Below, piece by piece: positions 19,141 to 55,663 of a stretch of DNA of 64,000 nucleotides. Under the pieces are notes generated by a model. The model had not been told where the DNA came from. It made no database searches and saw only the letters and a program-made list of their open reading frames with translations. The translations under genes were made by a program, and so were the position numbers. Location of the stretch: positions 18,173 through 82,172 of the forward strand of contig VBKI01000070.1 of NCBI GenBank assembly GCA_005879535.1, given 5' to 3'. The DNA is from Deltaproteobacteria bacterium. GTDB lineage: Bacteria; Myxococcota; Myxococcia; Myxococcales; 40CM-4-68-19. Numbering within the stretch: position 1 is the first letter of the stretch; each line of letters begins with the position of its first letter.

Positions 19141-22100
19141 ATGGACTCGATCGTCACCGAGGAGCTTCCGGTTCCGGCCCCGCAGCGCGATCCGAGCGAC
19201 GAGGAGATCCAGGCTGCGAAGGACGCTCTGGCGCACCTGGAAAGCGAAGCGGCCGCCCTCGGCAACGTTCCCTCCGCTGCGCCCGTGCACCACGCCATGG
19301 GGCGAATCTTCCTCGAGCAGCTCGGAGACGCGAAGAGCGCTGCCGTCTGCTACCAGAACGCGTTCGATTTGAACCCGCGATACCGGCCCAACCTCGAGTC
19401 CGCTCGACGCCTCTTCGCCGCCGCCGGGCGGAAGGACAAGGCGCTCGCGCTCCATCACCGCGAAGAAGCGCTGCTGGACGACGACGGCGAACGCGCGGAA
19501 TCGCTGCGCGCACAGGCGTTGCTCCTTCGTGAGCTCGGCAGGGTGGAAGACGCGAAGAAACTGATCGACGGCGCGCTCCGCCTCGCGCCCGAGCATCCAG
19601 CCCTCCTGAAAGCGAGCGTCGAGGCCTCCGAGCGCGAGGGCGATCGGGCGCGCACCGCGACCCTCTTGATCCGTTCCGCGCGCGCCACGCGCGACCCCGT
19701 CTACAAAGCGCAGCACTTGCGGCGGGCGGTCTTGCTGCTCGACGCGCTGCGAGCGCAACCGGATGGTGCGTCCGGGGATATCACGCAGCTGCACGACGAG
19801 GTGGTCCACAAGCTGCACCAGGCGGATCCCAACGACGCCATCGGGTTCTTCGCGACGCTGTTGCGCGCACGTTCGAGCAACGACTGGGAGACGGTTCTCC
19901 GCCTCTGCCGGCAGCGGGCCGATCGGACCGCCGGCGCCGCCGACCGGGCGCTGGCAGCCGCCATCGCGGCGTACCGCCTGGGTCGAGTCTCCGAAGGCCT
20001 GGCGGAGGCCACCGCCGCGCTCGAGGACAACCGCCGCGACGGCGCGCTGCTCGCGCTGCGCAGCGAGCTCTCCGAGCAGCAGAAGTCGCCGGACCTCGCC
20101 GACGTGCTCCGCCAGCGCGCCGCGGGAAGCATCGAGGCGACCGAGCGCGCCCATCTCAAGATGCGCACGGCGCTGCTGCTGTCCGACCCGCTCGAGCAGG
20201 AGCAGCTCCTCTCCGAGGCGTTGGCCGACAACCCCGGAGACGCGGCGGCGATCGCGCTCCACGCGCGACTGGTCACGCAGCGCGATCCGGGCTCCGCCGC
20301 GGAACGGTTCATCGCGCTCGGCGAGGCGCTGGAAACGCATGCGCCCGACGAGGCGGCGGCGCACTATCTCGAGGCCGGGGTCTGGCACGAACGCGCCGGC
20401 GGGCGTGCAGAGGCCGCGGCACTCGCCCAGCGCGCGCTGAAGCTCGTGCCGAAGCACCTTCCCGCGCTCCGGCTTCTGACGCGCACGCTGCCCGGCCTGA
20501 TGGCGGGAGACCAGCTCGCCGACCTTCTCGAGCACGCCTCGGTCCAGCTTCCCCGCGCCATCGGCGCCGAGCTTCTCGCGCGCGCCGCAGCGCTGGTGAG
20601 CGAAGCCGAGCCGGAGCGGAGCATCGCTCTCGCCCGGCGGGCGGCCGAGATGGCCCGCGGCCTCGTCAGCCCACGAGGGCTGGAGACCTGGTGCACGTTC
20701 GCCTTCAAGCTGAGGGACTTCGCCCAGCTCTCGCAAGCGCTGGAAGCGCGCGCCGATTCCACCTCCGGCTCGGACGCCGCGGACCTGCTGGTCGAGGCGA
20801 GCGAGCTGGCCCGGGCCGCGGGCAACGACGTGCGATCCACCACGCTCTTGCGCAAGGCGCGCGGGGTCGATCCCGGCTCGTCCACGGCGCGCAACGCGCT
20901 GCTCGCCCTCAGCACGATCCCGAGCCGCGAGCGCATCGAGCTGCTGCAGGAAGAAGCGCGCCACACGGCGCCCGAGCGGGCGGCGGCGCTGCAGGCCGAG
21001 CGCGCCATGCTCCTCGAGGAGGAAGGACGCGTCGACGAGGCGGTGTACGCTTGCACCCAGGCGCTGACGCTCGCCGGGCTCGACCTCGCGGTGCTCCGGC
21101 GGCTCGTCCGGCTGCAGCTCCGCCGCGGCGATCACGCGGCGGCACTCGCGGCGCTGGTACACGTCGCCGAGACGGTCCCCGAGGGACATCCGCGGGCGGA
21201 GGCTTACGGGCGGGCGGCCGAGGCGGCGGAGTGGCGCGTCGGCGATCCGCTGCGCGCCATCGATCTCTACAAGGCAGCAACGCAGCAGCATCCGCAGGCC
21301 GCGTTCGCCTGGTCGCAGCTGGCGCGCCTTCTCGCCTGGACGGAAAAGCCGGCGGAGGCGGCTCTGGCCTGCGAGCACCTCGCCGCCGTTGCCCAACCGC
21401 TCTCCGAGCGCAACGAGGCGCGGCGCTGGGCAGCCTCCCTCTATGCGCACCGGGCCGGGCAGCCCGAGAAGGCGGCGTCGCTCCTGCGGGCGCTGCTCGC
21501 CGACGCGCCTGGAGACCTCGAGGCGGCCGCCGAGCTGCTCGGGTTGATCGCGCATGAAGCGACCGCCGCGGCCCGCAAGGAGCGCGTCGAGCTGCGCGGC
21601 CGGCTCGCCTCCAGATGCCAGGACCCGCGCGTTGCCGCTCTCTTGCGCGCGGAGTCCGGAGAGGACCGCCTGGCGGCCGGGGAGCGGGACCAGGGCATCG
21701 CTGAGTACCGGCGGGCGCTGGCGCTCAACCCCCAGGATCGGGTCGCGCTCGACGTGGTCGAGGACGTGCTGCGAGGCAGCGGACAGAAGTCCGTGCTCGC
21801 GGACCACCTCGCCTTCCGCTGCTCGTTCGCCGACGGAGACACGCGGGCCGCGCTCGCGCTGGAGCAGGCGCAGATCTTCGTCGAGCAAGGCCGGATGAAG
21901 GAGGCGGCGGCCGCCTACCGCCAGGCCCTGGCGAGCGAGCCGGCTTCCCTGGTCGCATTGAAGGGCGCGCGTCACATCGCCGGGCTTCTCGGCGACGAAG
22001 CCGAGGTGGCCCGCCTGCTCGCCAAGGAAGGTTCGGTCGCGAGCAACGCCGGAGCGATGGTCGAATCGGCGCTGCTCGCCGCCGACATGGGCCAGGACGA

Positions 22101-24566: not shown

Positions 24567-24570
<4 letters not shown>
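23845..24570 (-). CDS. molybdopterin-binding (MoCF/CinA N-terminal-like) domain protein
   Basis: 241 aa. ILVIGNEILSAKVQDENG and TSGGIGPTHDDVT motifs typical of the CinA/MoaB fold. 4-nt overlap with the upstream regulator gene. Confidence 0.85.
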
Positions 24571-26122
<1,552 letters not shown>

Positions 26123-26126
<4 letters not shown>

Positions 26127-34695: not shown

Positions 34696-35322
34696 TCAGA
34701 AGACGTAGCGGATGCGCGGCATCACCACCAGCGAAGGCATCCTGACGCCGTACCTGGCAAACGTCTCGCGGATCACCGCATCGATCCCGACGGCGAAGTG
34801 ATCGAGGCGGGTATCGTAATCCAGCGAGAATCCGCCGCCCGCATGCAGGCCGGGCACGTGGTCTGGCACGGAGCCGTTCCGCTGGACCGGTCCTGGCGAG
34901 AGGTCGGTGAATCCTCCGAGCACCTTCGCCGCCAGCATCGTCCGGGGAGCGATCGCGAAACCGTACGAGACCCCGACCTCCAGGAAGGTGGCGCCGAAGG
35001 AGTCGGCGCCCAGGCAGGAATCTCCCGTCGGGCTCAGCTGGTAGCAGGAAGAGCGCGCAGCGCCGAGCCCGAGCGAGGCGAAGACCGACGCGCGCGAGCC
35101 GAGGTCGCGCCCGAACGTCAACGCGAGGTACGGCTCGCCGCTCGAGAACGGCCGGGTACCGCCCATCGCCGTGAACACCCCTAGCGCGGCCTCGACGTAC
35201 GTTCCGCGGCGAGGCGCATCGTCGACGCCAGCGACGACCACCGTGTCGGGTGGCCGCGCCCCCGGGTCGGGTTGCGCCCAGGCGGCGGTGCCCAGCAGCA
35301 CGCCAATCAGGAAGGCCTTCAT
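34696..35322 (-). CDS. outer-membrane beta-barrel protein, GltH/NfsH-position member of the Glt/Nfs-like cluster
   Basis: Signal peptide MKAFLIGVLLGTAAWAQ. Alternating beta-strand pattern. Terminal ...RIRYVF aromatic residue. ATGA overlap with the upstream gene. Confidence 0.7.
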   Translation of the reverse strand: MKAFLIGVLLGTAAWAQPDPGARPPDTVVVAGVDDAPRRGTYVEAALGVFTAMGGTRPFSSGEPYLALTFGRDLGSRASVFASLGLGAARSSCYQLSPTGDSCLGADSFGATFLEVGVSYGFAIAPRTMLAAKVLGGFTDLSPGPVQRNGSVPDHVPGLHAGGGFSLDYDTRLDHFAVGIDAVIRETFARYGVRMPSLVVMPRIRYVF

Positions 35323-36797
35323 TGCGCGCTGCTCTTGAAGACGTAGGGATAGGTGACCTGCACCGTTCCGCCGCCCTGCGGAGCGGGGAACAGCCAGCGG
35401 CGTACGTGATTGATCATGCAGCTTTCCACGGGCTCGCTTCCCATCGTCGTCTGTTGGATGAGAGCCTCTCCGACGCGGCCGCTGCCCTCGATCATGAACA
35501 GCACCGTCACCTTCCCGTACAGCTCGGGCTTCTTCGAGAGCTCCTTCTCGTAGCAGTACTTGATCTCGTTGTAGTGCTTCTGGATCACGCGGTTGATCAC
35601 ATCGCGCGACAGGCCGCCGACGACGACCGTGCGGCCGGGCACGAACACCGTCTCGTCCTTCCCGCGCCCGCCGAGATCGACGTCGCCGTACCCGCCTCGA
35701 CCATGTCCGGAGCCCTTGGTGCCGAGGCCTCCGATGCCCAACGCCTGGCCGCCGCCACCTGCTCCGGTGCCGCGGGTGCCCAGACCGCCGACGCCATATG
35801 CATCGCCGACGCCCGCCCGGGCGCGCGTGCCGCCGAGCGAAGGATTGACGCCGGCGCCGAGCCCTCTCGGCCCGGGCAGGCCCGCGCCGCCACCACCCAC
35901 GGCTCCCATCTTCGAGAGAGCGGCGATGAGGCCGAGCTTCTTGATCTTCGACAGATCCCTCCTCTTCTTGTCCGGATCGCCACCGGGCTTCGAAGGCGCC
36001 GCTTCCTTCTTCTTCGGTTCCCGCTTGCCGAGCTTTCCTTCGGCGCCGGCGCTCTTGTCGCCCTCCTTGGCTCCGGACAGCTCCTTCGCCTTGGGCGGTT
36101 CGGACGCCTTCTCCGCCGGCTTCACCTGGTACTTCGCGAAGCGCTCCGGGTTCTGCACCAGGGCGTCGCGGTCGAGATCGACCCGCGGCATCGAGCTCAT
36201 CGCGCGGAGGAACGCGAGCAGCGCGAGGAGGGCGAACACCACGACGATCGCGAACGGCAGGTCGATCCGCTTCAGCGCGGGCGTTTCCTTCTGCCGCTCC
36301 GCGCGGACGTAGCGGGCGATCAACGTCAACGACGGCGTGAGCTGTGCGACGACCCGATCGTCGCCCGCGATGGCGTGCGCGTATCCGCGGAACGGCGCGT
36401 CGACGCGTCGGCCCTTCACCGCCAGAGGGAGGACCCTGCCGCCGCCGTGCACTTCCGCATGCAGCTCGTCGGGCAGCGTCACCACGTGCCCGTCCGGCGC
36501 GTGCTTCACCAGGTGGAAGTTCCTGGGGAGCGTCGATTCCGGCAGATCGAACAGGCGGCTGACGCTGAGATCCGCGCCATCGCCGACCTGTTCCAGCTCG
36601 ACCAACGTCGAGCCGCCCCAGACGATACCGACGAGCAGGACGCGGCCGCCGGGCCGTGGCCGCTCGTCGTCCGGAAGCTCGTCGAAGATCAGCAGCTGCG
36701 CCGCCGCCGCGTCCGAGACCCGGGAGGCGAGCGTCGGACGCGTCCCCTGCGCTCCCTCCACCTCCTCGACCTCCACCATGCGCTCGATCTGGGCCAT
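35319..36797 (-). CDS. bitopic inner-membrane protein with AgmX/PglI-type TonB-C-like domain (GltG/NfsG-like)
   Basis: ATG at 36797 with GGGAAG RBS. Cytoplasmic N-domain, TM LPFAIVVVFALLALLAFL, Lys/Glu/Pro-rich then Gly-rich linker. C-terminal segment is VINRVIQKHYNEIKYCYEKEL...VESCMINHVRRWLFPAPQGGGTVQVTYPYVF. Confidence 0.8.
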   Translation of the reverse strand: MAQIERMVEVEEVEGAQGTRPTLASRVSDAAAAQLLIFDELPDDERPRPGGRVLLVGIVWGGSTLVELEQVGDGADLSVSRLFDLPESTLPRNFHLVKHAPDGHVVTLPDELHAEVHGGGRVLPLAVKGRRVDAPFRGYAHAIAGDDRVVAQLTPSLTLIARYVRAERQKETPALKRIDLPFAIVVVFALLALLAFLRAMSSMPRVDLDRDALVQNPERFAKYQVKPAEKASEPPKAKELSGAKEGDKSAGAEGKLGKREPKKKEAAPSKPGGDPDKKRRDLSKIKKLGLIAALSKMGAVGGGGAGLPGPRGLGAGVNPSLGGTRARAGVGDAYGVGGLGTRGTGAGGGGQALGIGGLGTKGSGHGRGGYGDVDLGGRGKDETVFVPGRTVVVGGLSRDVINRVIQKHYNEIKYCYEKELSKKPELYGKVTVLFMIEGSGRVGEALIQQTTMGSEPVESCMINHVRRWLFPAPQGGGTVQVTYPYVFKSSAQ

Positions 36798-36808
36798 CTT
36801 CCCGCGTC

Positions 36809-37099
36809 CTACAGGTTGTCGGCGGACTTCTGCAGCTCGGGATTGAAGTTGTCGCGGAGACGGACCAGCGAGCGGAACCGCGTGCGGTTGCGATTGAGGA
36901 CGTAGCTGCCCTCCGGCCTCGTGAGCTCGCCCTCGACCGTCACGTCGTTGAAGTCGATGACGGTGCGCTTGCGGACCACGATCCGGTCGGCTTCCTGCAC
37001 GACCTTCGCGCGGGGCTTTTCCTCGGCGAGCGCCGGCAGCGCGAGCAGGACGATCAGGACGGTTCTCCTCACACTCACCTCCGCGGGGACGATTTGCAT
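36809..37099 (-). CDS. small exported/single-pass protein (GltF/NfsF position)
   Basis: ATG at 37099 (the tracked ORF starts at TTG 37117). Hydrophobic N-terminus RRTVLIVLLALPALA. Conserved-looking VIDFNDVTVEGELTRPEGSYV block. Assignment rests on position only. Confidence 0.55.
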   Translation of the reverse strand: MQIVPAEVSVRRTVLIVLLALPALAEEKPRAKVVQEADRIVVRKRTVIDFNDVTVEGELTRPEGSYVLNRNRTRFRSLVRLRDNFNPELQKSADNL

Positions 37100-37140
37100 C
37101 GCAGCGCGATCGGCCAACCGTCAGCCCGCTCGCCCGTCGT

Positions 37141-38364
37141 TCAACGGACAACCGAAGGGGCGTCTTCCGGGGGAAGGTCTTCCGGCGACGATCCGGGATC
37201 CGCGCCTTGTGGCAATTTCGACAGATCGAGGCTGGCGCCGGCAGCTTTCGCCGCAGTCCTCGCGACCGCAGGAGGCGCATTCCGCAGCCGGAGATCGATT
37301 GAGGCGAGCTGATTTTGCGCTTCCTTCAGACGGCTTGCCTTCGGCAGCCCCAGGTATTCCTTGAATCCAGAGAGTGCAGCGGGGAGGTCTCCCTCCGATT
37401 TGAGCGCCGTGGCCCTCCCGTACAGCGCGTCGTCCTGGCGCGGCGCGATGGCGAGCACCTTCTCGTATTCGGCGCGCGCCTCCCCAGGCCGGCGCAGGCC
37501 TTCCAATGCCCAGGCTCGACCGAGATGCGACTCCCAGCGCGCGGGATCCAGCTGGAGCGCCCTGGCGAACGCCTCTTCCGCCGCCGCGTAGTCGCGATAC
37601 CTCGTTGCGAGCGCCCCGAGGTTGATGAAGGCGGGGGCGAAGTCCGGATCGAGCTGAGCTGCCTCCTCGAAGAATGCGCGCGCGGCGGCCACGTCCTCGC
37701 GCTGCAGCGCCAGCAGCCCGAGGCTGTTCGGGATCCTGGCATCCTTCGGATCGAGCTTTCGCGCGTGGTCGAACGCCGCCTCGGCGAGGCGGACGTGTCC
37801 CTGGTCGCCTTCGATGGCGGCGAGATTGCGATACGCATCGGCATCGCGCGGATGTCGCTGCAGCACCTGGCGGAGCACCGCCGCGGCGTCCTCGAGCTGG
37901 CGCCGCCCGCGCAAAATGGTGGCAAGCGCGTTCAGCAGTCGGGGATCGGCCGGTTGTTTCAGCAAAGCCGCGCGCAGGACGGCCTCCGCGCGGTCCGGGG
38001 CACCAGCGAGCAGGCGAGAGAGGTTGACGGCCGCGCCGACATGTCCCGGATCGGCGGCCAGGGCGCGCGTGTACAGCTCCGCCGCCGCAGGCGCGTCGCC
38101 GAGCTGCTCCTCAACCCACGCGGAGTCGAAGAGCGCGCCTGGATGGTTGGGCTGCTTCGCGAGGAACGTCTCGAGGCGGGCCTCGGCTCCTTCCCAGTCC
38201 CGCCGGGTCATCAGCTCGCGGCCTTCCTTGTACAGGATCGTTGCCGGCAGCTCGAACAGGCGCTGCCGTTCCGCGGCCTTGATCTGCGCCGGGGTCGGCC
38301 GCTGTTGCGCGGGAGCGTGCGCGCAAGCGCAGGCAAGCAGCGCGATCGCCATGAACAGCCGCAT
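37141..38364 (-). CDS. TPR-repeat lipoprotein (GltE/AglT/NfsE-like)
   Basis: ATG at 38364 shares 1 nt with the upstream stop (TGATG). Lipobox ALLACAC. About 8 TPR units. Pro/Ala-rich tail. Confidence 0.8.
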   Translation of the reverse strand: MRLFMAIALLACACAHAPAQQRPTPAQIKAAERQRLFELPATILYKEGRELMTRRDWEGAEARLETFLAKQPNHPGALFDSAWVEEQLGDAPAAAELYTRALAADPGHVGAAVNLSRLLAGAPDRAEAVLRAALLKQPADPRLLNALATILRGRRQLEDAAAVLRQVLQRHPRDADAYRNLAAIEGDQGHVRLAEAAFDHARKLDPKDARIPNSLGLLALQREDVAAARAFFEEAAQLDPDFAPAFINLGALATRYRDYAAAEEAFARALQLDPARWESHLGRAWALEGLRRPGEARAEYEKVLAIAPRQDDALYGRATALKSEGDLPAALSGFKEYLGLPKASRLKEAQNQLASIDLRLRNAPPAVARTAAKAAGASLDLSKLPQGADPGSSPEDLPPEDAPSVVR

Positions 38365-41300
38365 CAGGGACCTCCCGTCAGCTCGGGCGCGACCGGGCGC
38401 GTCGGGGCGCTCTCGGCAAAACCTGGACGGTGCACGTCGCCGTACGCGTCCGGTTGGTACTCGCGCAGCAGATCCTGGGCCTTGACCACCCACTCCGAAT
38501 ACACGCCGGTGGTGCGCGAAATGGCGATCGCCTTGGCGAATGCCTCGACCGCCTTGTCCTCGAGCGGCAGGGCCTGCGATTCGAGCATGCTCCGGTAGAG
38601 CTCCTGTTGCTCCCGGTCGAGGCCGCGCGGCATCGGCGCATCGAGCAGGCCCTTGTTGAAGTTGCGGTACGCCTCGCCGATGCGCGCGAAGGCGGCCTCG
38701 CTCCAGCGCGGGCTGCCGACGGCGATCACCTCGCCGTATGCGGAGAGCAGCCGCGCGATGCGCGTGTTCTTCACCTTCAGCACGTAGACGAGGTCGGCCT
38801 GGCGGAGATAGCGGAAGTGGATGGCCATGAAGTCGCTGAACGACGGCTCGACGGCGAGGAAACAGGCATGCGCGGCCGCATCGATCAGCGGCGCCGCGGC
38901 CTTGTCCGCCTCGGCAAGCCGGGCATAGCGTTGCGGGACGTCCGCCAGGACTGTGGCGGCCTCCGGCGCTTTCAGCTCGCGCAGGGCCAGGCCCTGCTTG
39001 TAGCGCGCGAGGAGGAGCTGTCCGGCGGTGGCCGCCCCTGCCCATTCGCGGTGGAACGACGACCAGTGCTCGGCGGCGCGCCGGAAATCTTTCTGCCGCT
39101 CGAGGATGACGCCGACGTTGAACGCGATCTTCGCCGCGTCGGGCCGCGAACGGTACTGCTTCAGCCAGGTCTGCCAGTCGCGGAGCGCGCCGGCGTCGTC
39201 GCCGACGCCTTCGCGCCAGATCGCGGCATTGTAGAGCCAGTCCGCCGCCCTCGCATCCGAGGGCCAGCGCCGCTGCGCCTCCTCGTACCAGCGGACGGCG
39301 TCCGGAAACCGGCCGGCGCGCTCGCAGGCGTTGGCCAACGCGGGGATCGTCAGCTTGACGATGGCCGGATCCGCGCTGCTGTATTCGCGCACGAGCTGCT
39401 CGCCCGCGGCGATCTCGACGTCGAGCTCGTCTCCCTTGTCCGCGATCAAGAGCGCGTCGTAGAGCGCCTTCGGCGCGTACTCGCTCTTCGGATAGCGCGC
39501 CACGAAGGCGCGGAACTCGCTCGCGGCGAGGGCGAAGTCCTTCTTCTCCTCATAGAGCTGCATCGCGTACTTGAACCGCGCGCCCTCCGCCACGCGAGCC
39601 GTCTCGAGCTGGAACTTCGAGCCAGGCGGACAGAGCTGGCTGTCCCGGAGAAAGCGCTGGGCCAGATCGCTGAGGGCCTGCCACTCCTGCCTGGTATTCA
39701 GGATGTCCAGGGAGAGCTCCGCGGCCTTCTGCGACCAGCTGTCGGTGGGCCAGCGAAGGATGATCTCCCCGAAGCGCTTGGCCGCGTCGACGAAATGCCG
39801 GCGCTCGTAGAAGACGAACGCGGCCTTGTAGCGGATGACGATCTCGTCCTTGGCGCCAGAGGCCAGCCGCAGGTACCGATCGCAGGCGGCGATCAGCTTC
39901 TGCTCGTTCTCCGGAATCGGCTCCGGCTGGACGTCGCGCGTGACGGTCTCGAGCCGGAGCTTGCCGGCGCCGCGATCGACATGTCCTTTGTCCTTGCGCT
40001 CCTCGACCTTCGCCGCGTCGGCGAGCTCGCGCTTCTTCAGCTTGCCCTTGGCGATCGCCACCGCCTTCTCCAGGGCGAGGATGGCGTTGTACGCAGCGCG
40101 CTGCGCTTGCGACCCCTTGGGATCGGCTTCCACGACCTTCCCGTACTCCATGGCGGCGGCGTCCCACTCTTCGAGCGCGTAGAGGATCTCCGCGTAGTAG
40201 AAGCGCATCGACGCGGTGCTCTCGCTCTGCGGGAACGTGTCGAGGTATTGGCGGTAGATGTCGCGCGCCAGCCGGTAGGTGGCAGCGCTCTTCGTCTTGA
40301 TCGCTTCCTGGTGGTAGTCCTGCACCAGCTCGCGCAGCGACGCTTCCGCCAGATCGCGCGCTTCGGCCAAAGCTCCCTTCTCCGCGGTGTTCGCCTTGGC
40401 CCATCCGCTCTGCGGCCCGTAGTCTCCGACCAGCCGATTCATCTCCGTGACCACCTGATCGCGCCGGTTCAGCTTGTCGTAGGCGAGCAGGATCTTCTGC
40501 TGCCAGGCGGGCGCTTTCGCGTGGCCCGGGGCGCGCGCCTGCAGGATCCGGTACACGCGGATGGCCTGCTCGAATTTGCCGTCGTCGAAGTAGGTGGCCG
40601 CCAGCCGCTGGATGGCCTCCACGGAATCGGCGCCGGCCTTCTCCGCCAGATACGCGACGGCGCCGTCGATCGCGTCGACGTGGGCGTACGCAAGGACGAT
40701 GTCCTTGAGCGCTTCCTGGCGGAGCTGCACCCGGTCGCCACGGGCCTCGCCCTCCGAATAGGCGATCACTTCCTTGAACTTCGCGATGGCCGCTCCGTAC
40801 GCCCCGGCGTTGTAGTCGCACCAGGCGAGCTTGTAGAGCGCGAACGCGTACAGCTTCGGCAGGTGGAACGAGGCGGCCTTCTCGAAGGCCTCCCGCGCCC
40901 GGGGCAGATCGTTGGTGGCGAAGAAGTGCTCGCCGGTCTGAACCCAGGCGTCGGGGACGAAACGGCTCTTCGGGTACTGCGCGATCAGCGCGGAGTAGTA
41001 GGCGATTCCGCGATCCCTGTTGCCGCTCTCGTAGAGGTTGTGGCCCGCCACGAAGAGCACTTCGTCGCGGCGCTCGTACGCAGGGTACCGATCGAGCACC
41101 TCCTGGTAGAGGCCGATGGCCTCCCTGCGGTACCCGTCGCTGCGGCTCGTGTCGAGCTTCGGCTCCTCGCCCTCCCGCTTGTCCGCCCATTTCGCGACCG
41201 CGTCGTCGTGATCGCGGACTTCCTGAAGGCCTGCGTAGCGCGCCTTCTCCCACCAGAGCTCGGCGAGCTGGAAGTAGAGGTCGGCACGGCGATCCCCCTC

Positions 41301-41456
41301 CGGCATCCGCGGGATGATGACCTTCAGATCCTCGATCAGCTCGTCGCGCTTGCGATCGGCTTTGGCGTCGGCCTGGCGATCGTCCTGCAGCGCCGCGGGC
41401 GACGAGGCCGCCGGAGAGAGGGCAAGGAGGAGCGCTGCGAGCGCGCACAGCGTCAT
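38364..41456 (-). CDS. 1030-aa exported TPR protein (GltD/AgmU/NfsD-like)
   Basis: Signal-like N-terminus MTLCALAALLLALSPAAS. YbgF-like/TPR repeats throughout (FVPDAWVQTGEHFF, LYKLAWCDYN...). ATGA overlap with the upstream gene. Confidence 0.8.
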   Translation of the reverse strand: MTLCALAALLLALSPAASSPAALQDDRQADAKADRKRDELIEDLKVIIPRMPEGDRRADLYFQLAELWWEKARYAGLQEVRDHDDAVAKWADKREGEEPKLDTSRSDGYRREAIGLYQEVLDRYPAYERRDEVLFVAGHNLYESGNRDRGIAYYSALIAQYPKSRFVPDAWVQTGEHFFATNDLPRAREAFEKAASFHLPKLYAFALYKLAWCDYNAGAYGAAIAKFKEVIAYSEGEARGDRVQLRQEALKDIVLAYAHVDAIDGAVAYLAEKAGADSVEAIQRLAATYFDDGKFEQAIRVYRILQARAPGHAKAPAWQQKILLAYDKLNRRDQVVTEMNRLVGDYGPQSGWAKANTAEKGALAEARDLAEASLRELVQDYHQEAIKTKSAATYRLARDIYRQYLDTFPQSESTASMRFYYAEILYALEEWDAAAMEYGKVVEADPKGSQAQRAAYNAILALEKAVAIAKGKLKKRELADAAKVEERKDKGHVDRGAGKLRLETVTRDVQPEPIPENEQKLIAACDRYLRLASGAKDEIVIRYKAAFVFYERRHFVDAAKRFGEIILRWPTDSWSQKAAELSLDILNTRQEWQALSDLAQRFLRDSQLCPPGSKFQLETARVAEGARFKYAMQLYEEKKDFALAASEFRAFVARYPKSEYAPKALYDALLIADKGDELDVEIAAGEQLVREYSSADPAIVKLTIPALANACERAGRFPDAVRWYEEAQRRWPSDARAADWLYNAAIWREGVGDDAGALRDWQTWLKQYRSRPDAAKIAFNVGVILERQKDFRRAAEHWSSFHREWAGAATAGQLLLARYKQGLALRELKAPEAATVLADVPQRYARLAEADKAAAPLIDAAAHACFLAVEPSFSDFMAIHFRYLRQADLVYVLKVKNTRIARLLSAYGEVIAVGSPRWSEAAFARIGEAYRNFNKGLLDAPMPRGLDREQQELYRSMLESQALPLEDKAVEAFAKAIAISRTTGVYSEWVVKAQDLLREYQPDAYGDVHRPGFAESAPTRPVAPELTGGP

Positions 41457-42919
41457 TCGTCCCTCCCCGCCGGGCAGGCGTCCTTGACGGTGTAGCGGTA
41501 GAAGCCGATCTCGTCGGGCCAGTACTCGCCGTCGAACGGCCAGTACTCGTGTCCCTTGGGGGGAATCGCCGGCCGGAAGAGCCGCTGCGAGGCGAGCTGC
41601 GCGTCCGCGTCGAACCGCGTCTCCAGCATCTCCTTCTCGCCTTTGGTGGTCTCGAAGGCGATCAGCTCCCGGTCGCCCTGCAGCACGTCGATGAGGCGCA
41701 CCATGTCGGCGAGGCGGCCCTGGACGAACTTCCCGGCGAGCTGCGCGGAAAGCTCCTTCTGCGGGGCGATGGCGTCGAGCAGCTCGTCCTTCAGCGCCGA
41801 GCCGGCCAACCCCGGCTCGGCGCGGACGCGCGCCGCCTCGCGATCGAGTTGCTCGAGATAGGCGCGCATGGCGGACACGCGCTCGTTCTTCTGCAACTGA
41901 TGCTGCACCGCGGGTGGAAGGCGGGAATCGCCGGCGGACAGCATCCGCCAGTACTCGCCGAGCGGCAGGTCCGCCTGCAGGATGCTCTTCATCTGGTCGC
42001 GCATGGGCAGGTACTCGCGGTCGAACTGCGCGATCGTCGAGCGGACCTGCGGGTACAGGCAGCGCTGCTGGTAGAGGATCGCGGCCAGGTTCAGCGACTC
42101 GGGCACGAACTCGTCGCGCAGATGCGGCGAATGCAGGCTGTGCAGCTTGCCCAGCGCCGCGCCGGGATCGCCCTTCTGCAGATCCGCATAGGCTCCTTCG
42201 AACAGCGCCTCGTCCCAGTGCCGCGAGAAGCGCGGGAGCTTCTCGTACGCAGCGCTGGCCTCAGGGTAGCGATGCAGCCCGTAGAGCGTGCGCCCCAGGG
42301 CGATGAGGGAGAGCTCCCGGAGCTCACTGCCGGCGCGGGGAAGGGCCGCGAGAGCGCGGAATGTCTCTACCGCTTTCTCCGGGTCGGTCCGCTGCTGCAG
42401 CAAACCCGTCAGGTATCGGGCCTGGGGCGATGCCGCGCTCGAGTCGGGCACGAGGCGGACGAGGCGCGCCGCGTCTTCGTACCTCCCGGCGCGCCAGGCA
42501 AGGAGAGCGAGCGAGGTCCTGATCGCCGCCAGCCTCTCCGGTGCAACTCCATCGATACGGTCGCCGTAGATCTTCTCGAACAGGTTCGGCGCGACGACGT
42601 CGTCGCGAAGCTGCGACGCGGCGAGGGCTGCTCCGTCCACCGCCTTGAGCCAGTACGGGTGCGAAGGCCGGTCACGGACGATGGCGGCGTAGTGGAAGAA
42701 AGCGCCGAACTCGAGGCCGAGCCGCTCCAGCGACTGGGCGAGGAAGTACTCGGCCTGCGCGAGATCGGCCTCCGCCGTCGTGTCGAGCGCGCGGCGGAAA
42801 CCGATCGCCGCGCGCGCGTTGCGCCCTGCATTGAAATCCTGCATCGCGCTGCCCAGACCGGCGTCCTGGGCGGCAGCGGCCGCGGAAACGAGGAAGAGAA
42901 CGAGGGCGAGACGGCGCAT
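41453..42919 (-). CDS. periplasmic TPR-like protein (GltC/NfsC position)
   Basis: ATG at 42919 with signal peptide MRRLALVLFLVSAAAAAQD. Helical-repeat N-half, coiled-coil-like C-half. Confidence 0.75.
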   Translation of the reverse strand: MRRLALVLFLVSAAAAAQDAGLGSAMQDFNAGRNARAAIGFRRALDTTAEADLAQAEYFLAQSLERLGLEFGAFFHYAAIVRDRPSHPYWLKAVDGAALAASQLRDDVVAPNLFEKIYGDRIDGVAPERLAAIRTSLALLAWRAGRYEDAARLVRLVPDSSAASPQARYLTGLLQQRTDPEKAVETFRALAALPRAGSELRELSLIALGRTLYGLHRYPEASAAYEKLPRFSRHWDEALFEGAYADLQKGDPGAALGKLHSLHSPHLRDEFVPESLNLAAILYQQRCLYPQVRSTIAQFDREYLPMRDQMKSILQADLPLGEYWRMLSAGDSRLPPAVQHQLQKNERVSAMRAYLEQLDREAARVRAEPGLAGSALKDELLDAIAPQKELSAQLAGKFVQGRLADMVRLIDVLQGDRELIAFETTKGEKEMLETRFDADAQLASQRLFRPAIPPKGHEYWPFDGEYWPDEIGFYRYTVKDACPAGRDE

Positions 42920-42930
42920 GCGGGGCGTCC

Positions 42931-43767
42931 TCAGAAGAGCCAGCTCAGGCCGCCCTGGAAGGCGATGTTGTTGATCACGTCGGACGAAGGACGCGCGAGC
43001 AGGTCCTTCGCGGCGCCGGCGTTGAGCTGCGCCTGGGCACCCGGCGCTCCGAAGGCGCGCTCGTCGCATCCGGGAGACAGGCCGGTGGCGGTCTGGCCGT
43101 TCGCCTCGGCGGCCTCGATCCTGGCCGCCTCGTCGTGGTTGCAGCCGTTCACCTTCGAGACGTATCCGGAGTACGCAAAGTCCCTCACCTCGATGCGTAT
43201 CGTCAGCTGTTCGCTGAGGAAGACGCGGAGCCCGATGCCCAGCGACGCAATGGGGCGGAACCCGGTGTCGCCGAACGTGCGCCCGGTGACGGGGTCGGAC
43301 GAGGGCCGCAGCTGCACCCGTGTCTTCGCCGCGCCGAGCCCGCCGTTGAGGTACACCCCGAGCCGCAGGATCTTGCCGTCGAAGATGTTGAGCTTGCCGT
43401 AGACGGGCATCAGCTCGAGGCCGGCGAGAGCGGCGGCGCGAAGCAGGAACGCCTCGGCCGTTTCCGGCGCGACGCGCGCCTTGGTGAGCAGCTCTTCCGA
43501 GAGCGAGCTCTGCACCGAGATCGGGAAGTACCAGACGCCCAGCTGCGCGGCGAGGTTCTCGCGCAGGTGGTAGGCCAATTCCGCCGAGAGCCCGGCGTGC
43601 ACCGTGAATTTGGGATTGATCTGGGTATTGCCGAAGAACGACGCCTCCCAGCGGCCCGCCTCGGTGAAGGGACGCTGTTCCAGGACGTGGATGCGAACCG
43701 CATCCGGGTCGGTCTGTTGCGCCGCCGCCGCTCCGCAGATCAGGGATGCGATGAGGAACGTTCGCAT
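42931..43767 (-). CDS. outer-membrane beta-barrel protein (GltA/B / NfsA/B-like paralog 2)
   Basis: ATG at 43767 with signal peptide MRTFLIASLICGAAAAQQ. Shares blocks with the upstream paralog (GRWE, PVYGKLNIF vs PIYGKFNLA). Ends GGLSWLF. Confidence 0.75.
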   Translation of the reverse strand: MRTFLIASLICGAAAAQQTDPDAVRIHVLEQRPFTEAGRWEASFFGNTQINPKFTVHAGLSAELAYHLRENLAAQLGVWYFPISVQSSLSEELLTKARVAPETAEAFLLRAAALAGLELMPVYGKLNIFDGKILRLGVYLNGGLGAAKTRVQLRPSSDPVTGRTFGDTGFRPIASLGIGLRVFLSEQLTIRIEVRDFAYSGYVSKVNGCNHDEAARIEAAEANGQTATGLSPGCDERAFGAPGAQAQLNAGAAKDLLARPSSDVINNIAFQGGLSWLF

Positions 43768-43769
43768 GA

Positions 43770-44531
43770 TCAGAACAGGAACGAGACGCCGGCCCCGAAC
43801 GTCGCGACGTTTGCGAGGTAATGGCGGAGGGAACCGGTCGAAGGCTGCGTCAGGTCGTTGGCCGTCTTGTACGAGGAGCGGAAGAGATGGCTGCGGACCT
43901 CCGTCCGCAGGCTCCAGCGCTGGTTGAAGTAGAAGCGGAAGCCCGCGCCGAGGATGCCGACGGGATCGACGGAATCGCTCTGCTGGTAGCTCTGGCAGAC
44001 GCCGGTACCCGGATCGGCGCAGAGGTTGACGGACTCGCGATGGATTCGCGCGGCTCCGGCGCCCGCGAGCAGGTAAGCCTGGAAGTGCACCCGCAGCTCG
44101 GACGCGAGATTGAACTTGCCGTAGATCGGAGCGACGCGGGCGACCGCGAATGCGCCCCCGCGGAGCTGGTTGTCGTTCCTGAACTCGTCGCCGGTCTGCC
44201 CCTCGCTGCGCGGCCGCATGTCCGCCCGGACGTTGCGCGCCAGAGTGGAGAGCCCGGTCTGGTTGAGCAGCACCTCTCCCGCCAGGTCGAGCCATTCATT
44301 CGGGTGGTACGCGAGCGAGACCGTGCCGCCGAGCTGGTCGACCAGCGCCGTGTTCAGCGCGACGCCGAAGGAAGCGGCAGCTTCCCACCGTCCCGTCATC
44401 GGGTAGAGCTTGTGCTGCACTACGGTAGGAGCGCCGTCGGGGCCGTAGATCGATTCCTGCGCGCGCGCCGCGGGAGCGGCGATGACGCAGACGGCGGCGA
44501 GTAGCTCGAAAGGCAACAACCGGGCGCGCAT
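43770..44531 (-). CDS. outer-membrane beta-barrel protein (GltA/B / NfsA/B-like paralog 1), first gene of the cluster
   Basis: ATG at 44531 with signal peptide MRARLLPFELLAAVCVIAAPAARAQE. Ends AGVSFLF. The rest of the 1025-aa tracked ORF is antisense to the ATPase gene. Confidence 0.75.
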   Translation of the reverse strand: MRARLLPFELLAAVCVIAAPAARAQESIYGPDGAPTVVQHKLYPMTGRWEAAASFGVALNTALVDQLGGTVSLAYHPNEWLDLAGEVLLNQTGLSTLARNVRADMRPRSEGQTGDEFRNDNQLRGGAFAVARVAPIYGKFNLASELRVHFQAYLLAGAGAARIHRESVNLCADPGTGVCQSYQQSDSVDPVGILGAGFRFYFNQRWSLRTEVRSHLFRSSYKTANDLTQPSTGSLRHYLANVATFGAGVSFLF

Positions 44532-44717
44532 TCCTGGGTCTCCGCTTGGCGGTGGAAGCTGCTGCGCGCCCGTCCGCCCGGCAAGGTCGGGCGCCTGCCT
44601 GCCTGTCGCTTTCCGTCTTGCGTGCGGCGGACGGCGACGCCGGCGCACCTTCGCGCACTGCGGCGTACACCCTTGAAATTGTGGCCGCTTCGGAGTCGCG
44701 TGGTATCGATTTGACGC

Positions 44718-46904
44718 ATGGGGGGCTCTCAGAGCACCGGCGCTTCGGCGCCGGAAGCGCGCTTGCCCGACGCGAGCGTCGCGCCGCCGCCGCTTCTCGA
44801 CGGCATCGTCCGGGTGAAGGTTCCGGCGGACAAGATCCAGCCTTTCCTCACCCGCAGCGCGCTGTTCAAGAGCGCACCGAAGGACGTGATCACTCGCGTT
44901 TCCGGGCTGCTGCAGGGCCTCGAGTGTGCCGATGGCAGCGAGATCGTCACCGCAGGCAAGGTGAACGACGGGATCGGGATTCTCTATTCCGGCAAGGCGC
45001 AAGTGCTGTTGCCCTCGGCCGGCGGCGAATTGGCGCCCGTCGAGGACTTGCTGCCCGGCGACCACTTCGGCGAAGTGGGAGCGCTCCTCGGGAAGCCCAG
45101 CCCCTACTTCGTGATCGCGAGCGACTCGTCGCGCGTTCTCTGGCTGCCGTCCTCGGTCCTGCAGGGGATGATCGGCAACGTGCCGACGGTGGCGGAGGCG
45201 CTGGCGAAGCGGCTGACGGAACGGGTGGTGCTGTTCGCCGCGATGGAGAGACAGGGCGCGCCGGAGCTGATGACCGACATCGAGGCGCAGCTCCTCCAGA
45301 CGGTGGATCCTGCCGTTGAGGCGAGGCCGCTGCAGTCGATCGAGCCCGAGCCGGATCCGAGCGGGGTCGTCGCATTTGCCGAGCTGCGCGACTTCGATCT
45401 TTCGCCGTCCGTGCTCGCGACGGTGCCGACGAAGCTGATCCGCAGCTTCCGTCTCTTGCCGGTGAAGCTCGCCGGCAACGTCCTCACGGTCGCGATGGTG
45501 AACCCGCGCGACAACGCGGCGCTGGCCGAGCTCAGGCGAACGCTGCAGACGATGCAGATCGTGCCGGTCGCGATCGGGCTGGAGGACTTCAATTCCGCGT
45601 TGGTCCGGCTCAAGCTTCTCGACGATTCCGGGCCGAAGAAGTCCGGCGGTCCGCGCATCAACCCCGATTCCTTCCAGTTCGAGACCGTCGCCGAGCAAGA
45701 CCGCGCCGCCGACGCGCGCGCCGTGGGCGACGACGCGATCAGACTCGTCAACCGGATCATCGCCGCCGGCCTCGAGCGCGAGGCCAGCGACATCCACATC
45801 GAGCCGACCGCGCAGGGATTCCGCGTCCGCTTCCGCGCCAACGGCTTGCTGCAGGACTGGAGCGAGCCGATTCCGGCGACGACCTCGCTCAAGGGCGTGA
45901 CCGCGCGCATCAAGGTCCTCGCCGGGCTGGACATCACCGAGCGCCGGCTGCCGCAGGACGGCCGGATCGGCGTGACCACCGGCAAGCGCGAGATCGACCT
46001 CCGCGTCTCCACGCTTCCGGCGAACCGGGGCGAGAAGATCGCGCTGCGCATCCTCGAGGCGGCAGGGAGCACGCGGGCGCTGGAGCAGATCTTCTTGGAG
46101 CCGACGGTGCTGGCGGCGGCTCGCAAGGCGCTGAACCGGCCCTATGGCGGCATCGTCATCGCGGGCCCGACCGGATCGGGAAAGACGTCGTCGCTGTACG
46201 CGCTGCTCAACGAGCGCAAGGTCACCCGGCCTGACACCAACATCATCATGGTGGAGGATCCCATCGAGTACCGGCTGGCAGGCGTCACGCAGGTGCAGGT
46301 CAACGCCAATGCCGGCCTCGGGTTCCCCCAGGTCCTTCGCTCGATGCTGCGCCAGGACCCCGACGTCATCGTGGTCGGCGAGATGCGCGACGAGGACACC
46401 GCACGGATCGGTCTCGAGGCGGCGATGACCGGCCACCTGCTGCTCACCTCGTTGCATGCCAACCACGCCATCGCGGCCGTGCAGCGCCTGGAGAACCTCG
46501 GGACCGGCCGCGCACTGATCGCGCAGTCGATCCATCTCGTGCTGGTCCAGCGCCTGGTGCGCAAGCTCTGCTCCGCCTGCCGCAAGCTCGATCCGCCGGT
46601 GCCTGCGCTGCTCGAGTCCCTGGTCGCACGCAGGATCGTGGACAAGGGGCAGCAGACCCTGCCACGCGCGGTCGGCTGTGACGCCTGCGGCGGCACGGGT
46701 TACGTCGGACGCGCAGCCGTGGTCGAGGCCCTGCAGATCAACGACGCCGTTCGCGAGGCCATCGCCGCCGGACGGTCTCTGGCGGACGTGCACGACATCG
46801 CCACCGAGACGCGCGCCCTGACGCCGTTCATCGACTACGCCCGACACCTACTGCAGAAGCAGATCATCAGCGCCAGCGAAGTGCTGCTCTCGGTCGCGGA
46901 CTGA
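44718..46904 (+). CDS. GspE/PilB-family secretion ATPase with N-terminal cyclic-nucleotide-binding domain
   Basis: 728 aa. cNMP-binding-like region (FKSAPKDVI...GDHFGEVGALLGKPSPYFVIA). T2SSE_N-like domain (LIRSFRLLPVKLAGNVLTVAMVNP). Walker A GPTGSGKTSS. Asp/Walker B boxes (IIMVEDPIEY, VIVVGEMRD). His box LTSLHAN. Tetracysteine CSAC...CDACGGTGYVGR. Confidence 0.88.
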   Translation: MGGSQSTGASAPEARLPDASVAPPPLLDGIVRVKVPADKIQPFLTRSALFKSAPKDVITRVSGLLQGLECADGSEIVTAGKVNDGIGILYSGKAQVLLPSAGGELAPVEDLLPGDHFGEVGALLGKPSPYFVIASDSSRVLWLPSSVLQGMIGNVPTVAEALAKRLTERVVLFAAMERQGAPELMTDIEAQLLQTVDPAVEARPLQSIEPEPDPSGVVAFAELRDFDLSPSVLATVPTKLIRSFRLLPVKLAGNVLTVAMVNPRDNAALAELRRTLQTMQIVPVAIGLEDFNSALVRLKLLDDSGPKKSGGPRINPDSFQFETVAEQDRAADARAVGDDAIRLVNRIIAAGLEREASDIHIEPTAQGFRVRFRANGLLQDWSEPIPATTSLKGVTARIKVLAGLDITERRLPQDGRIGVTTGKREIDLRVSTLPANRGEKIALRILEAAGSTRALEQIFLEPTVLAAARKALNRPYGGIVIAGPTGSGKTSSLYALLNERKVTRPDTNIIMVEDPIEYRLAGVTQVQVNANAGLGFPQVLRSMLRQDPDVIVVGEMRDEDTARIGLEAAMTGHLLLTSLHANHAIAAVQRLENLGTGRALIAQSIHLVLVQRLVRKLCSACRKLDPPVPALLESLVARRIVDKGQQTLPRAVGCDACGGTGYVGRAAVVEALQINDAVREAIAAGRSLADVHDIATETRALTPFIDYARHLLQKQIISASEVLLSVAD

Positions 46905-47028
46905 GCCACTACCGCTCGCACGGCGAGCAGAACGGTCGCTCGACGCACAGCCGGCATGGTCCTTGTCGCTCTCACGGCGTACGCTCTATTCGTGATCTGG
47001 GAAGCTGTCCCAAAATGATGTGTGAGCC

Positions 47029-47643
47029 GTGACGAGCGGACTCGCCGGCGTCGACGGCTGCCGTAGTGGATGGGTCGTCGCGTGGGAAGGCGGCGTCCAG
47101 GTGCTTCCCACGTTTGCGTATGTTCTTTCCCGCCGCTTCGAGCTCGCGCTCATCGACGTCCCCATCGGCCTGCTCGAGGTCGGTTCCCGCCGATGCGACA
47201 CCGAGGCGCGTTCCTTGATCGGCGAGCGAAGGAGCTCCGTCTTTCCAGCGCCCTCCCGCAGCCTGCTTCGCTCGCGGCGGTACGCCGGGCAATGCTCCGT
47301 CCAGCTCTGGAACATCCTCGAAAAGATTCGTGAAGTGGATGCCTCCATGAAGCCAGCGCTGCAGCGCCGCGTCCGGGAGGCGCATCCGGAGGTCAGCTTC
47401 GCGCTGCTGAACGGCGGTCCGCTCCGTTATCCCAAGAAGCAGGCGGCGGGGGAAACAGAACGGCGGCTGCTGCTGCGCCCGGTCTTCGGCGAGGTGCCCA
47501 GGGTGCCGGGGACGGCGCGCGACGACGTACTCGACGCCTACGTTCTGCTCTGGTCGGCGCGCCGCGTTCTGCATGGGCAGGAACGCGTCCTCGGATCCGG
47601 CGAGCGCGACGGGCGCAGACTGAAGTGCGAGATCGTCGGCTGA
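47029..47643 (+). CDS. DUF429-like protein
   Basis: 204 aa, GTG start. GVDGCRSGWV ... IDVPIGL ... RRCDTEAR...SSVFPAPSR pattern recalled from the DUF429 family. Confidence 0.7.
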   Translation: MTSGLAGVDGCRSGWVVAWEGGVQVLPTFAYVLSRRFELALIDVPIGLLEVGSRRCDTEARSLIGERRSSVFPAPSRSLLRSRRYAGQCSVQLWNILEKIREVDASMKPALQRRVREAHPEVSFALLNGGPLRYPKKQAAGETERRLLLRPVFGEVPRVPGTARDDVLDAYVLLWSARRVLHGQERVLGSGERDGRRLKCEIVG

Positions 47644-47781
47644 GCGCGACCGAAAGGTACGCGGCGCAAACCGGATTATTCCCCTGTTCGAGATCCAGCA
47701 GCGCGACAGCTTGAGCTGCGGGCGAATGCGGTACCCTTGTGCGTCAACGTGTCTGAGCGCGTCGACGCGCGAGGAGATTGC

Positions 47782-48255
47782 ATGGCAGAAGAGAAACGCC
47801 CTGTAGCCATCGTCGCCGCGCCGCCCAGGACGAAGCCGACGGACTACCCGCAGCCCTTTGCATCGCGGATGAAGGGGCGGGTGAAGCGGCCGCTGGGGGA
47901 CTTGTTCGGGCTGAAGAATTTCGGCGTGAATCTGACGCGCCTAGCGCCGGGCGCGGTGTCGGCGCTGAGGCATTCGCATAGCAGGCAGGACGAGTTCGTG
48001 TACGTGTTGCAGGGGCATCCCACGCTGCGCACGGACGAAGGGAAGACGCGGCTGTCGCCGGGAATGTGCGCGGGGTTCAGGGCCGGGGACGGGAATGGGC
48101 ATCACCTCATCAACGAGACCACCGAGGAGATCGTGTACCTCGAGGCGGGCGATCGCACGCCGGGGGATGAAGGAAGCTATCCCGACGACGATCTCGAGGC
48201 GGTGCTCATCGAGGGCAGGTGGCAGTTCACGCACAAAGACGGAACGCCGTACTGA
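47782..48255 (+). CDS. cupin domain protein
   Basis: ATG at 47782 with GAGGAG RBS. HSHSRQDEFVYVLQG ... GNGHHLIN cupin motifs 1 and 2. Confidence 0.8.
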   Translation: MAEEKRPVAIVAAPPRTKPTDYPQPFASRMKGRVKRPLGDLFGLKNFGVNLTRLAPGAVSALRHSHSRQDEFVYVLQGHPTLRTDEGKTRLSPGMCAGFRAGDGNGHHLINETTEEIVYLEAGDRTPGDEGSYPDDDLEAVLIEGRWQFTHKDGTPY

Positions 48256-48267: not shown

Positions 48268-48918
48268 CTACTTCACCGCGGGGCGCACGATGACGACGGA
48301 CTTGTCGTGCCCCGGCACGCTGCCGCTGATCACCAGCAGGTTGTTCTCGGGAACCACGTCGACCACGGTGAGGTTCTGCACCGTCCGGCGATCGACTCCC
48401 ATGTGCCCGGGCATCCGCTTGCCCTTGAAGACGCGGCCCGGCGTCTTCCGCTGTCCGACGGCTCCCATGTGGCGGTGGTGCTCGTGGCTGGAGGCGGAGT
48501 CGCGCGCCGCGCCCTTCATGTGGTGGCGCTTCACCACCCCGGCAAAGCCAAAGCCGCGGGTGGTGCCTGTGACGTCGACCCGGTCGCCCTTCTTGAACAG
48601 GGCGACGGTGACCTGGGAGCCGACCGCGAAGTCGCCGAGATCCTTCTCCTCGACGCGGAACTCCTTGATCAGCCGATGCGGCTTCTGGCTCTTCTTCTTG
48701 AACTGGCCGAGGTACGGCTTCGTCTGCCGGCGCTCGGCCTTCTTTTCGTCGAGCTCGTCGAAGCCGAGTTGTAGGGCGGTGTAACCGTCGCGCTCCTGCG
48801 TGCGATGGCCGAAGACGAGATTCGGAGCGGCCTCCACCACCGTGACGGGGACCGCGCTGCCGTCGTCCGCGAACATGGTGGTCATGCCGATCTTCTTGCC
48901 GATGATGCCCTTCGACAT
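48268..48918 (-). CDS. rplC: 50S ribosomal protein L3
   Basis: 216 aa. GIIGKKIGMT N-terminus, VDVTGTTRGFGFAGVVKRH, GQRKTPGRVFKGKRMPGHMG, VIVRPAVK. No rpsJ or rplD flanking. Confidence 0.92.
   Translation of the reverse strand: MSKGIIGKKIGMTTMFADDGSAVPVTVVEAAPNLVFGHRTQERDGYTALQLGFDELDEKKAERRQTKPYLGQFKKKSQKPHRLIKEFRVEEKDLGDFAVGSQVTVALFKKGDRVDVTGTTRGFGFAGVVKRHHMKGAARDSASSHEHHRHMGAVGQRKTPGRVFKGKRMPGHMGVDRRTVQNLTVVDVVPENNLLVISGSVPGHDKSVVIVRPAVK

Positions 48919-53376: not shown

Positions 53377-55663
<2,287 letters not shown>

Follow-up and report, generated by a model that had tools for sequence, protein, structure and literature searches.

A family of PilB/GspE-type ATPases with a degenerate CAP-like domain and no platform gene nearby in uncultured Myxococcota

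ATPases of the PilB/GspE type are normally understood as motors acting on a GspF/PilC platform that is encoded beside them. Myxococcus xanthus PilB and Vibrio cholerae MshE are built of an N1 domain, an N2 domain and a C-terminal ATPase domain with Walker A and B motifs, Asp and His boxes and a tetracysteine, and a regulatory module is found N-terminal to the motor; GspE/EpsE proteins have the same core, the N1 domain and the zinc site. In MshE-type ATPases, the module ahead of N1 is a helical one for cyclic di-GMP (c-di-GMP). Here, we describe an ATPase encoded in a 64-kb stretch of DNA from a Deltaproteobacteria bacterium (assembly GCA_005879535.1, contig VBKI01000070.1; hereafter the window, whose coordinates are used unless a locus is named), in which all these motor elements are found and a CAP/PKA-like beta-barrel takes the place of the c-di-GMP module. 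It belongs to a family whose genes lie apart from any recognisable platform gene and which, in one branch, is repeatedly paired with a protein kinase gene. We tentatively favour, at somewhat under an even chance, the reading that it is a sensor-regulated ATPase acting in trans on a partner encoded elsewhere, with a signalling or assembly pathway linked to a kinase as its most plausible setting, and that it does not drive a pilus or secretion machine encoded beside it.

The ATPase gene (44718..46904, plus strand) starts at an ATG and encodes 728 residues, and the public gene call on the same contig (L090) is also of 728 residues with an identical product. Its third-position G+C of 0.90, in a window of ~69% G+C, fits a real gene of this genome. 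The original prediction, made from the DNA letters, held that three domains are fused in this protein, and all three corresponding Pfam models indeed score above their cut-offs on the plus strand: a domain resembling those that bind cyclic nucleotide monophosphates (cNMPs), of the CAP/PKA effector type, at residues 71-152 (44928..45173; PF00027, 38.2 bits for a cut-off of 27.5), the T2SSE_N/MshEN/GSPII (N1) alpha-beta domain at residues 219-299 (45372..45614; PF05157, 54.5 bits for a cut-off of 23.1) and the T2SSE ATPase core, which comprises N2 and the C-terminal domain, at residues 341-719 (45738..46874; PF00437, 362.3 bits for a cut-off of 24.9). The core had also been called complete, which it is. 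Motif scans of the translation recovered the Walker A motif GPTGSGKT at residues 483-490 (46164..46187, plus strand; regular-expression match), the Asp box EDPIE at 513, the Walker B motif DPDVIVVGEMRD at 547, the His box TGHLLLTSLH at 571 and the tetracysteine site C618/C621/C654/C657 (CSAC at 618 and CDAC at 654; 46569..46688, plus strand), and the catalytic motifs and all four cysteines are unchanged in an alignment of 14 homologues. The N2 motif ERRLPQDGRI is retained as well. The PF00437 score and the full set of catalytic motifs place the protein in the T2SSE superfamily, and the T2SSE_N domain with the tetracysteine zinc site puts it on the assembly side (GspE/PilB, not PilT). By its domains and motifs, the protein is predicted to be an intact, catalytically competent motor of the PilB/GspE class, which would work as a hexamer.

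The likeness to either named type is nevertheless partial. GspE (TIGR02533, 415.2 bits) and PilB (TIGR02538, 415.1 bits) are the best-scoring curated models and are equal at 415 bits, both falling below their equivalog cut-offs of 630.25 and 675.65 bits, respectively. The protein further differs from GspE/EpsE by an extra N-terminal region of ~215 residues and by the lack of GspF, GspL or GspD genes nearby, and from PilB by the lack of PilC, PilM, PilN or pilin genes nearby and by its position in a separate clade.

The absence of partner genes was found at several levels. A Pfam scan of the window gene calls returned no T2SSF, Secretin, MotA_ExbB/ExbD or pilin family, one gene (the sigma-54 activator at 24567-26126) having been scanned with NCBIfam only. 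Hidden Markov models (HMMs) of T2SSF, secretin, PilN/GspL and PilM, built from proteins of generic PilB/GspE loci whose identities were checked with Pfam, matched nothing in the window, translated in all six frames, at E<=1, and no prepilin motif occurs in these frames. The same four HMMs had no match in six-frame translations of 30 family loci (L001-L024 and L083-L088), which were examined as contig fragments covering the ATPase gene and 10 kb on either side, and the Pfam lists of neighbours agree. In contrast, of 58 generic PilB/GspE loci retrieved by the same procedure, 41 gave a T2SSF match. Neither the GspF/GspL/GspD set expected of a GspE nor the PilC/PilM/pilin set expected of a PilB is co-encoded in the window or in the family loci. 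The claimed orphan status of the ATPase, with no platform, pilin or secretin gene in 64 kb, is borne out by both Pfam and HMM searches and holds for the whole family.

That family is small and seen only in metagenome-assembled genomes (MAGs) of Myxococcota. More than 120 database proteins have the three-domain architecture at 67-100% identity, and those that are named all come from MAGs assigned to Deltaproteobacteria or Myxococcales. When one genome per species was scanned, Myxococcota MAGs accounted for all 22 loci that aligned over residues ~30-728 (44-80% identity); the other matches were generic PilB/GspE proteins that aligned only from residue ~218 on. A search started from a distant member yielded many more members, from MAGs only (Polyangiales, Kofleriaceae and Myxococcota), and an exhaustive profile-free search with residues 26-340 gave 18 representatives at E<=1e-30 and about a dozen full-length clusters at 50% identity. 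A distance tree (neighbour-joining, no support values) computed from the ATPase cores groups the 27 family members in a single clade with a long stem branch, separate from 67 generic ATPases. Database names of the members are generic or wrong ('TadA', for example). The fusion had been presented as undescribed, and we likewise found no description of a protein combining T2SSE and cNMP domains in the searchable literature; cNMP domains and orphan ATPases are both missing from a 2024 review on how PilB is regulated.

These results bear on an alternative explanation, namely that the protein is a spare or alternative extension motor, i.e. a PilB/GspE paralogue serving a type IV pilus or a type II secretion-like machine encoded elsewhere, with the barrel as an extra regulatory input. 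Such a role would account for the retention of every assembly-type feature (N1, ERRLPQDGRI, Walker A and B, Asp and His boxes, tetracysteine) and for GspE and PilB being the best curated models. It sits poorly with the absence of a platform gene within 10 kb in ~30 family loci when most generic loci have one, with the long stem branch of the family and its sub-cut-off scores in both models, and with a recurrent operon partner (see below) that is a kinase and not a pilus or secretion gene. On balance, we regard a spare motor as unlikely, albeit a serious contender.

Outside the family, the best-scoring PilB/GspE-like ATPases come from a clade of Fibrobacteria/Fibrobacterota MAGs (L025, L032, L034, L038, L039, L040 and L063), which lies near the stem of the family in the neighbour-joining tree and in whose loci T2SSF had no match. 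The four Fibrobacteria loci that were checked carry a cluster-2 open reading frame (ORF) directly downstream of the ATPase gene, with Pfam secretin and STN domains confirmed in L025 and L034.

The N-terminal barrel is the most distinctive part of the protein. Its PF00027 score places it in the fold and homology class of cNMP-binding domains, and its best solved-structure matches by phmmer are the cNMP-binding domains of PKA and PKG (E=8.7e-8 for the CNB-B domain of PKA RI, RI-beta), the homology to PKA RI spanning ~110 residues. As in the PKA regulatory and CRP-FNR domains, the beta-barrel is followed by a long helix and the FGE of the phosphate-binding cassette is kept. Two differences set it apart: the cassette Arg-Ala pair is replaced by Ser-Pro (by other residues elsewhere in the family), and the barrel is fused to a secretion-type ATPase instead of a kinase-inhibitor or DNA-binding module. 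In PKA and CAP, the cassette arginine contacts the cyclic phosphate and is required for binding. Aligned to FGEIALLLNRPRAATVVA of PKA RI, the degenerate cassette FGEVGALLGKPSPYFVIA (residues 117-134; 45066..45119, plus strand) keeps Glu119 and has Ser128 in place of the arginine and Pro129 in place of the alanine (PRAA to PSPY in this protein), so that the pattern F-G-E...P-R-[ST/A]-A of functional cAMP/cGMP receptors is present as to its glutamate and not as to its arginine. Ser128 and Pro129 are unchanged in 14 close homologues (67-100% identity), a clade in which the cassette Gly-Glu is kept too. No aligned family member that covers the region has an arginine at this position; distant members show other non-Arg residues there, and several have also lost the glutamate.

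A genuine cAMP or cGMP receptor gating the ATPase, a possibility compatible with the other readings, could explain the above-threshold Pfam match, the PKA/PKG domains as closest solved structures and the preserved Gly-Glu. It would have to work with a serine and a proline, invariant among close homologues, at the positions of the phosphate-contacting arginine and its neighbouring alanine, and with the further losses seen in distant members; we find it highly doubtful. The c-di-GMP motif of MshE-type ATPases is a tandem 24-residue element, RLGxx(L/V/I)(L/V/I)xxG(L/V/I)(L/V/I)xxxxLxxxLxxQ (PMC5013675). Its strict form was found in 0 of 19 family members versus 6 of 70 generic PilB/GspE controls, and a relaxed form in 0 of 25 versus 15 of 70. 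Since the cassette arginine is lost family-wide and the c-di-GMP motif is missing, the description of the ATPase as 'nucleotide-gated' in the original prediction is unsupported: among the cassette residues of this protein, the glutamate is kept as that label would have it, and the arginine and alanine are not. The barrel appears to be CAP-like by descent and, as far as its motifs tell, not a receptor of c-di-GMP or, in the canonical sense, of cNMPs; in particular, it is probably not a receptor of cAMP or cGMP.

A recurrent partner gene emerged in a sister branch of the family. In 11 distant loci (L011, L013, L015, L016, L017, L023, L083, L084, L085, L087 and L088), a gene combining tetratricopeptide repeats (TPRs) with a Ser/Thr kinase domain (Pkinase) lies immediately 3' of the ATPase gene on the same strand, the other flanks being unrelated between loci. 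The two-gene module spans L011:9977-14541, L013:9974-15020, L017:10052-14481, L083:10001-14920, L084:10001-14612, L085:10001-14555, L087:10001-14897 and L088:2381-7490, and the genes are separated by 4-64 bp where measured, or overlap. The kinase proteins count 770-1000 residues, with N-terminal TPRs and a C-terminal kinase domain. Nine of them were compared and are orthologous at 39-73% identity, five of the nine over nearly their full length, and their divergence is similar to that among the ATPases. No description of such an ATPase-kinase module was found in the searched literature.

On these grounds, we propose that the barrel and N1 would be the input and docking modules of the ATPase, and would control either ATP turnover or the way the hexamer engages a partner whose gene lies elsewhere. 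In the sister branch, this partner would most plausibly be the TPR-Ser/Thr kinase, presumably co-transcribed immediately downstream. In the clade of the window, where the kinase gene is not adjacent, the place of the ATPase beside a Glt-like operon (see below) would reflect inherited local synteny. A signalling role of a PilB has a precedent (PMC5544727).

Several observations weigh against a trans-acting, kinase-linked ATPase. Searching with the nine kinase partners (tblastn) revealed no orthologue in the 64-kb window or in L001-L009; for the clade of the window, the kinase link thus amounts to an extrapolation from the sister branch. The kinase is also missing at eight distant loci (L010, L012, L018-L021, L024 and L086). 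Myxobacterial genomes abound in Ser/Thr kinase genes, which makes chance adjacency likelier, although their abundance does not explain a repeated adjacency of orthologues. Besides, an ATPase with an intact N1 domain, zinc site and catalytic residues has the features expected of a platform-coupled motor, and a platform protein may be encoded elsewhere in the genome. The AlphaFold2 model, computed from a shallow alignment of 14 sequences at 67-100% identity, reached a mean predicted local distance difference test of 45.9 and a predicted TM-score of 0.27, at which the domain interfaces are unreadable. Finally, all family members come from uncultured organisms.

The gene neighbourhood of the window offers another potential partner. 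Divergent from the ATPase gene, eight co-directional minus-strand genes (34696-44531) form an Nfs-type Glt-like cluster, with gene lengths that agree with the public gene calls. From the ATPase outwards, gene A encodes an outer-membrane beta-barrel (GltA-like, 253 residues; 43770..44531; TIGR04565 OMP_myx_plus, 93 bits for a cut-off of 60) in an uninterrupted ORF starting at an ATG at 44531, and gene B a second outer-membrane beta-barrel (278 residues; 42931..43767; TIGR04565, 78 bits for the same cut-off of 60). A GltC/NfsC-like protein follows (488 residues; 41453..42919; NF033756 gliding_GltC, 198 bits, below the cut-off of 450), then a 1030-residue TPR protein (38364..41456) with matches to multiple TPR families and YbgF-like repeats, assigned to the GltD/NfsD position by its place and architecture only. 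Next come a GltE/NfsE-like TPR protein with a signal peptide (407 residues; 37141..38364; NF033758 gliding_GltE, 74.7 bits, below 225), a GltF/CglF-like protein (96 residues; 36809..37099; NF033764, 69.6 bits, below 90), a GltG/NfsG-like protein with a TonB-type C-terminus (492 residues; 35319..36797; NF033760, 236 bits, below 650) and a GltH/CglE-like protein (208 residues; 34696..35322; NF033755, 139.5 bits, above the cut-off of 70). The GltG-like protein aligns through residues 83-491 to positions 238-649 of its model and lacks the first ~237 model positions; its TonB-type C-terminus is kept, as an AgmX/PglI C-terminal domain scoring 108 bits for a cut-off of 40.

This arrangement resembles the nfsA-H cluster (G3) of M. 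xanthus, which likewise runs from A to H in a single cluster, encodes a TonB-like G protein and is devoid of GltI, GltJ, GltK and motor genes (PMC3169522). Contrary to the M. xanthus nfs/Glt proteins, only the two barrels and the GltH/CglE-like protein exceed curated cut-offs here, which suggests a distant paralogue or orthologue of nfs/Glt, known from its genes alone, in an uncultured lineage. A homologue search with gene A returned, among the matches listed, only proteins of at least 59% identity, all from the same clade.

The original prediction speculatively tied the ATPase to this envelope complex, in its regulation, assembly or energisation, through co-regulation from a shared 186-bp region and on the argument that the TolQR-like channel expected to energise it is missing. 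The channel is indeed absent, as no MotA_ExbB/ExbD family occurs among the Pfam-scanned gene calls of the 64 kb. However, this absence does not call for an ATPase as an energy source. AglRQS, which depends on the proton-motive force, powers the Glt as well as the Nfs machine of M. xanthus by way of contacts of AglR with GltG and with NfsG (PMC3858216), and aglRQS forms a cluster of its own (M1), apart from the glt and nfs clusters (PMC3169522). Because the genes of this motor lie outside the nfs cluster, which itself has none, the missing TolQR is to be expected and needs no substitute (PMC3169522; PMC3858216). Moreover, the word 'ATPase' appears nowhere in PMC3169522, and the Glt/Nfs machines are proton-motive-force driven via AglRQS and the TonB-like GltG/NfsG (PMC3169522; PMC3858216).

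Conservation of the linkage was surveyed by tblastn of all window proteins against the family loci. Glt-like genes stand upstream of the ATPase in every relative of at least 67% identity that has upstream sequence (L001-L003, L005, L006, L008, L009 and L089). In the same relatives, the downstream flank (rplC, SLT, CsbD, HisKA, rpoH-like, enolase and SDR genes) is collinear with the window too, so that the adjacency is not independent evidence. Further out, the 10-kb flanks of 21 loci at 44-61% identity are free of Glt-like genes: L014 (58% identity) has other genes upstream, L086 (61% identity) has pyruvate-dehydrogenase and lipoate genes there, none of them Glt-like, and the same absence was found around the members at 44-51% identity. 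No linkage was thus found beyond generally collinear genomes, and the Glt adjacency looks like inherited local gene order rather than evidence of shared function. Across the orthologues, the expected association with glt/nfs-like clusters is not conserved, while the lack of their own GspF, PilC or pilin genes is.

At L009 (70% identity), two extra genes of 508 and 541 residues (L009:6623-9771, minus strand) separate the GltA-like gene from the ATPase gene. Their products have hydrophobic, signal-peptide-like N-termini and are lipoprotein-like, the first showing weak similarity both to CglD and to a MIDAS adhesin of Bdellovibrio.

The intergenic region itself was correctly located: gene A starts at 44531, not at 44532, and the ATPase gene at 44718, leaving a divergent region of 186 bp (44532..44717) of which 44532 is the first base. 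An alignment of seven relatives shows two conserved blocks in it, each proximal to one of the genes and separate from the other, and no shared operator is evident in 44532-44717 from this alignment. On the ATPase side, GTGGTATCGAT (44700..44710, plus strand) lies 7 nt upstream of the ATG and is conserved in relatives of 70-77% identity. It resembles an extended -10 element and may serve as a promoter, in which case, at such a distance from the ATG, the ATPase mRNA would be leaderless or nearly so. A scan for sigma-70 promoter and terminator consensus sequences gave nothing in 44400-47200, inspection by eye found no match to the sigma-54 -24/-12 pattern upstream of the ATPase gene, and Rfam returned nothing in 44300-47300.

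A functional tie between the ATPase and the Glt/Nfs-like complex has in its favour a divergent adjacency that is kept in all the close relatives, including L009, where the ATPase still stands beside the operon in spite of the two additional cluster genes. Set against it are the collinearity of the far flank, the disappearance of Glt-like genes at 58-61% identity (L014 and L086) and at 44-51%, the gene-proximal and separate conserved blocks, and the proton-driven nature of the described machines. We judge this tie quite improbable. A narrower version, in which the orphan ATPase was recruited in the clade of the window to partner the Nfs-type Glt-like machine from the cytoplasm, for instance by assembling or regulating it from the divergent promoter, seems to us very improbable; if true, a PilB/GspE-type ATPase would for the first time be seen coupled to a Glt-type transducer.

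The remaining genes of the window touch these questions only at the margin. Downstream of the ATPase gene are found DUF429, cupin, rplC, SLT and CsbD genes, a HisKA fragment, an RpoH-like sigma factor, a major facilitator superfamily transporter, enolase and other housekeeping genes. The rplC gene (48268-48918, minus strand; ribosomal protein L3; L3_bact, 244.5 bits for a cut-off of 142.9) is convergent to the ATPase gene and stands alone, with no other ribosomal-protein genes around, and its position is kept in all close relatives. The DUF429 and cupin genes that separate it from the ATPase gene (47029-48255, plus strand) occur together only in the window's own contigs (L090 and L091, the latter ending within the cupin gene); L004 has DUF429 and no detectable cupin, and the other close relatives have rplC as the next gene after that of the ATPase. 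Between the enolase and the short-chain dehydrogenase/reductase (SDR) genes, a PilZ-domain gene is present in L001:18373-19104, L002:19237-20088 and L089:17994-18878. The window has no PilZ homologue by tblastn and has instead an ORF with a CarboxypepD_reg-like domain (54731-55513, minus strand).

Some 10-20 kb upstream of the Glt-like cluster lie the gene of a 1550-residue all-TPR protein (19141-23793, plus strand) and that of the sigma-54-dependent activator (24567-26126, minus strand). The TPR protein, or any other window gene, was considered as a kinase-less relative of the TPR-kinases and rejected, tblastn with the nine partners having drawn a blank. Homologues of the activator occur near the ATPase gene in L013 and L023 (40% identity), probably by coincidence. 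Finally, the aspartate kinase gene (16019-17214, minus strand) is apparently split into an AA_kinase ORF (16594-17214), which ends in an odd Arg/Ser-rich tail, and an ACT-domain ORF (16019-16597) overlapping it by 4 bp; this may result from a frameshift or an assembly error.

To conclude, the ATPase family departs in three ways from the usual picture of a PilB/GspE motor: a degenerate CAP-like domain replaces the second-messenger module, no platform is encoded nearby, and in one branch the gene is paired with that of a TPR-kinase. For Glt/Nfs biology, the lesson is a cautionary one, since neighbourhood alone gives no ground for adding an ATPase to these proton-driven machines. If the pattern reflects function, a motor fold would have been put to use in signalling or in trans, in a phylum with complex surface behaviours.

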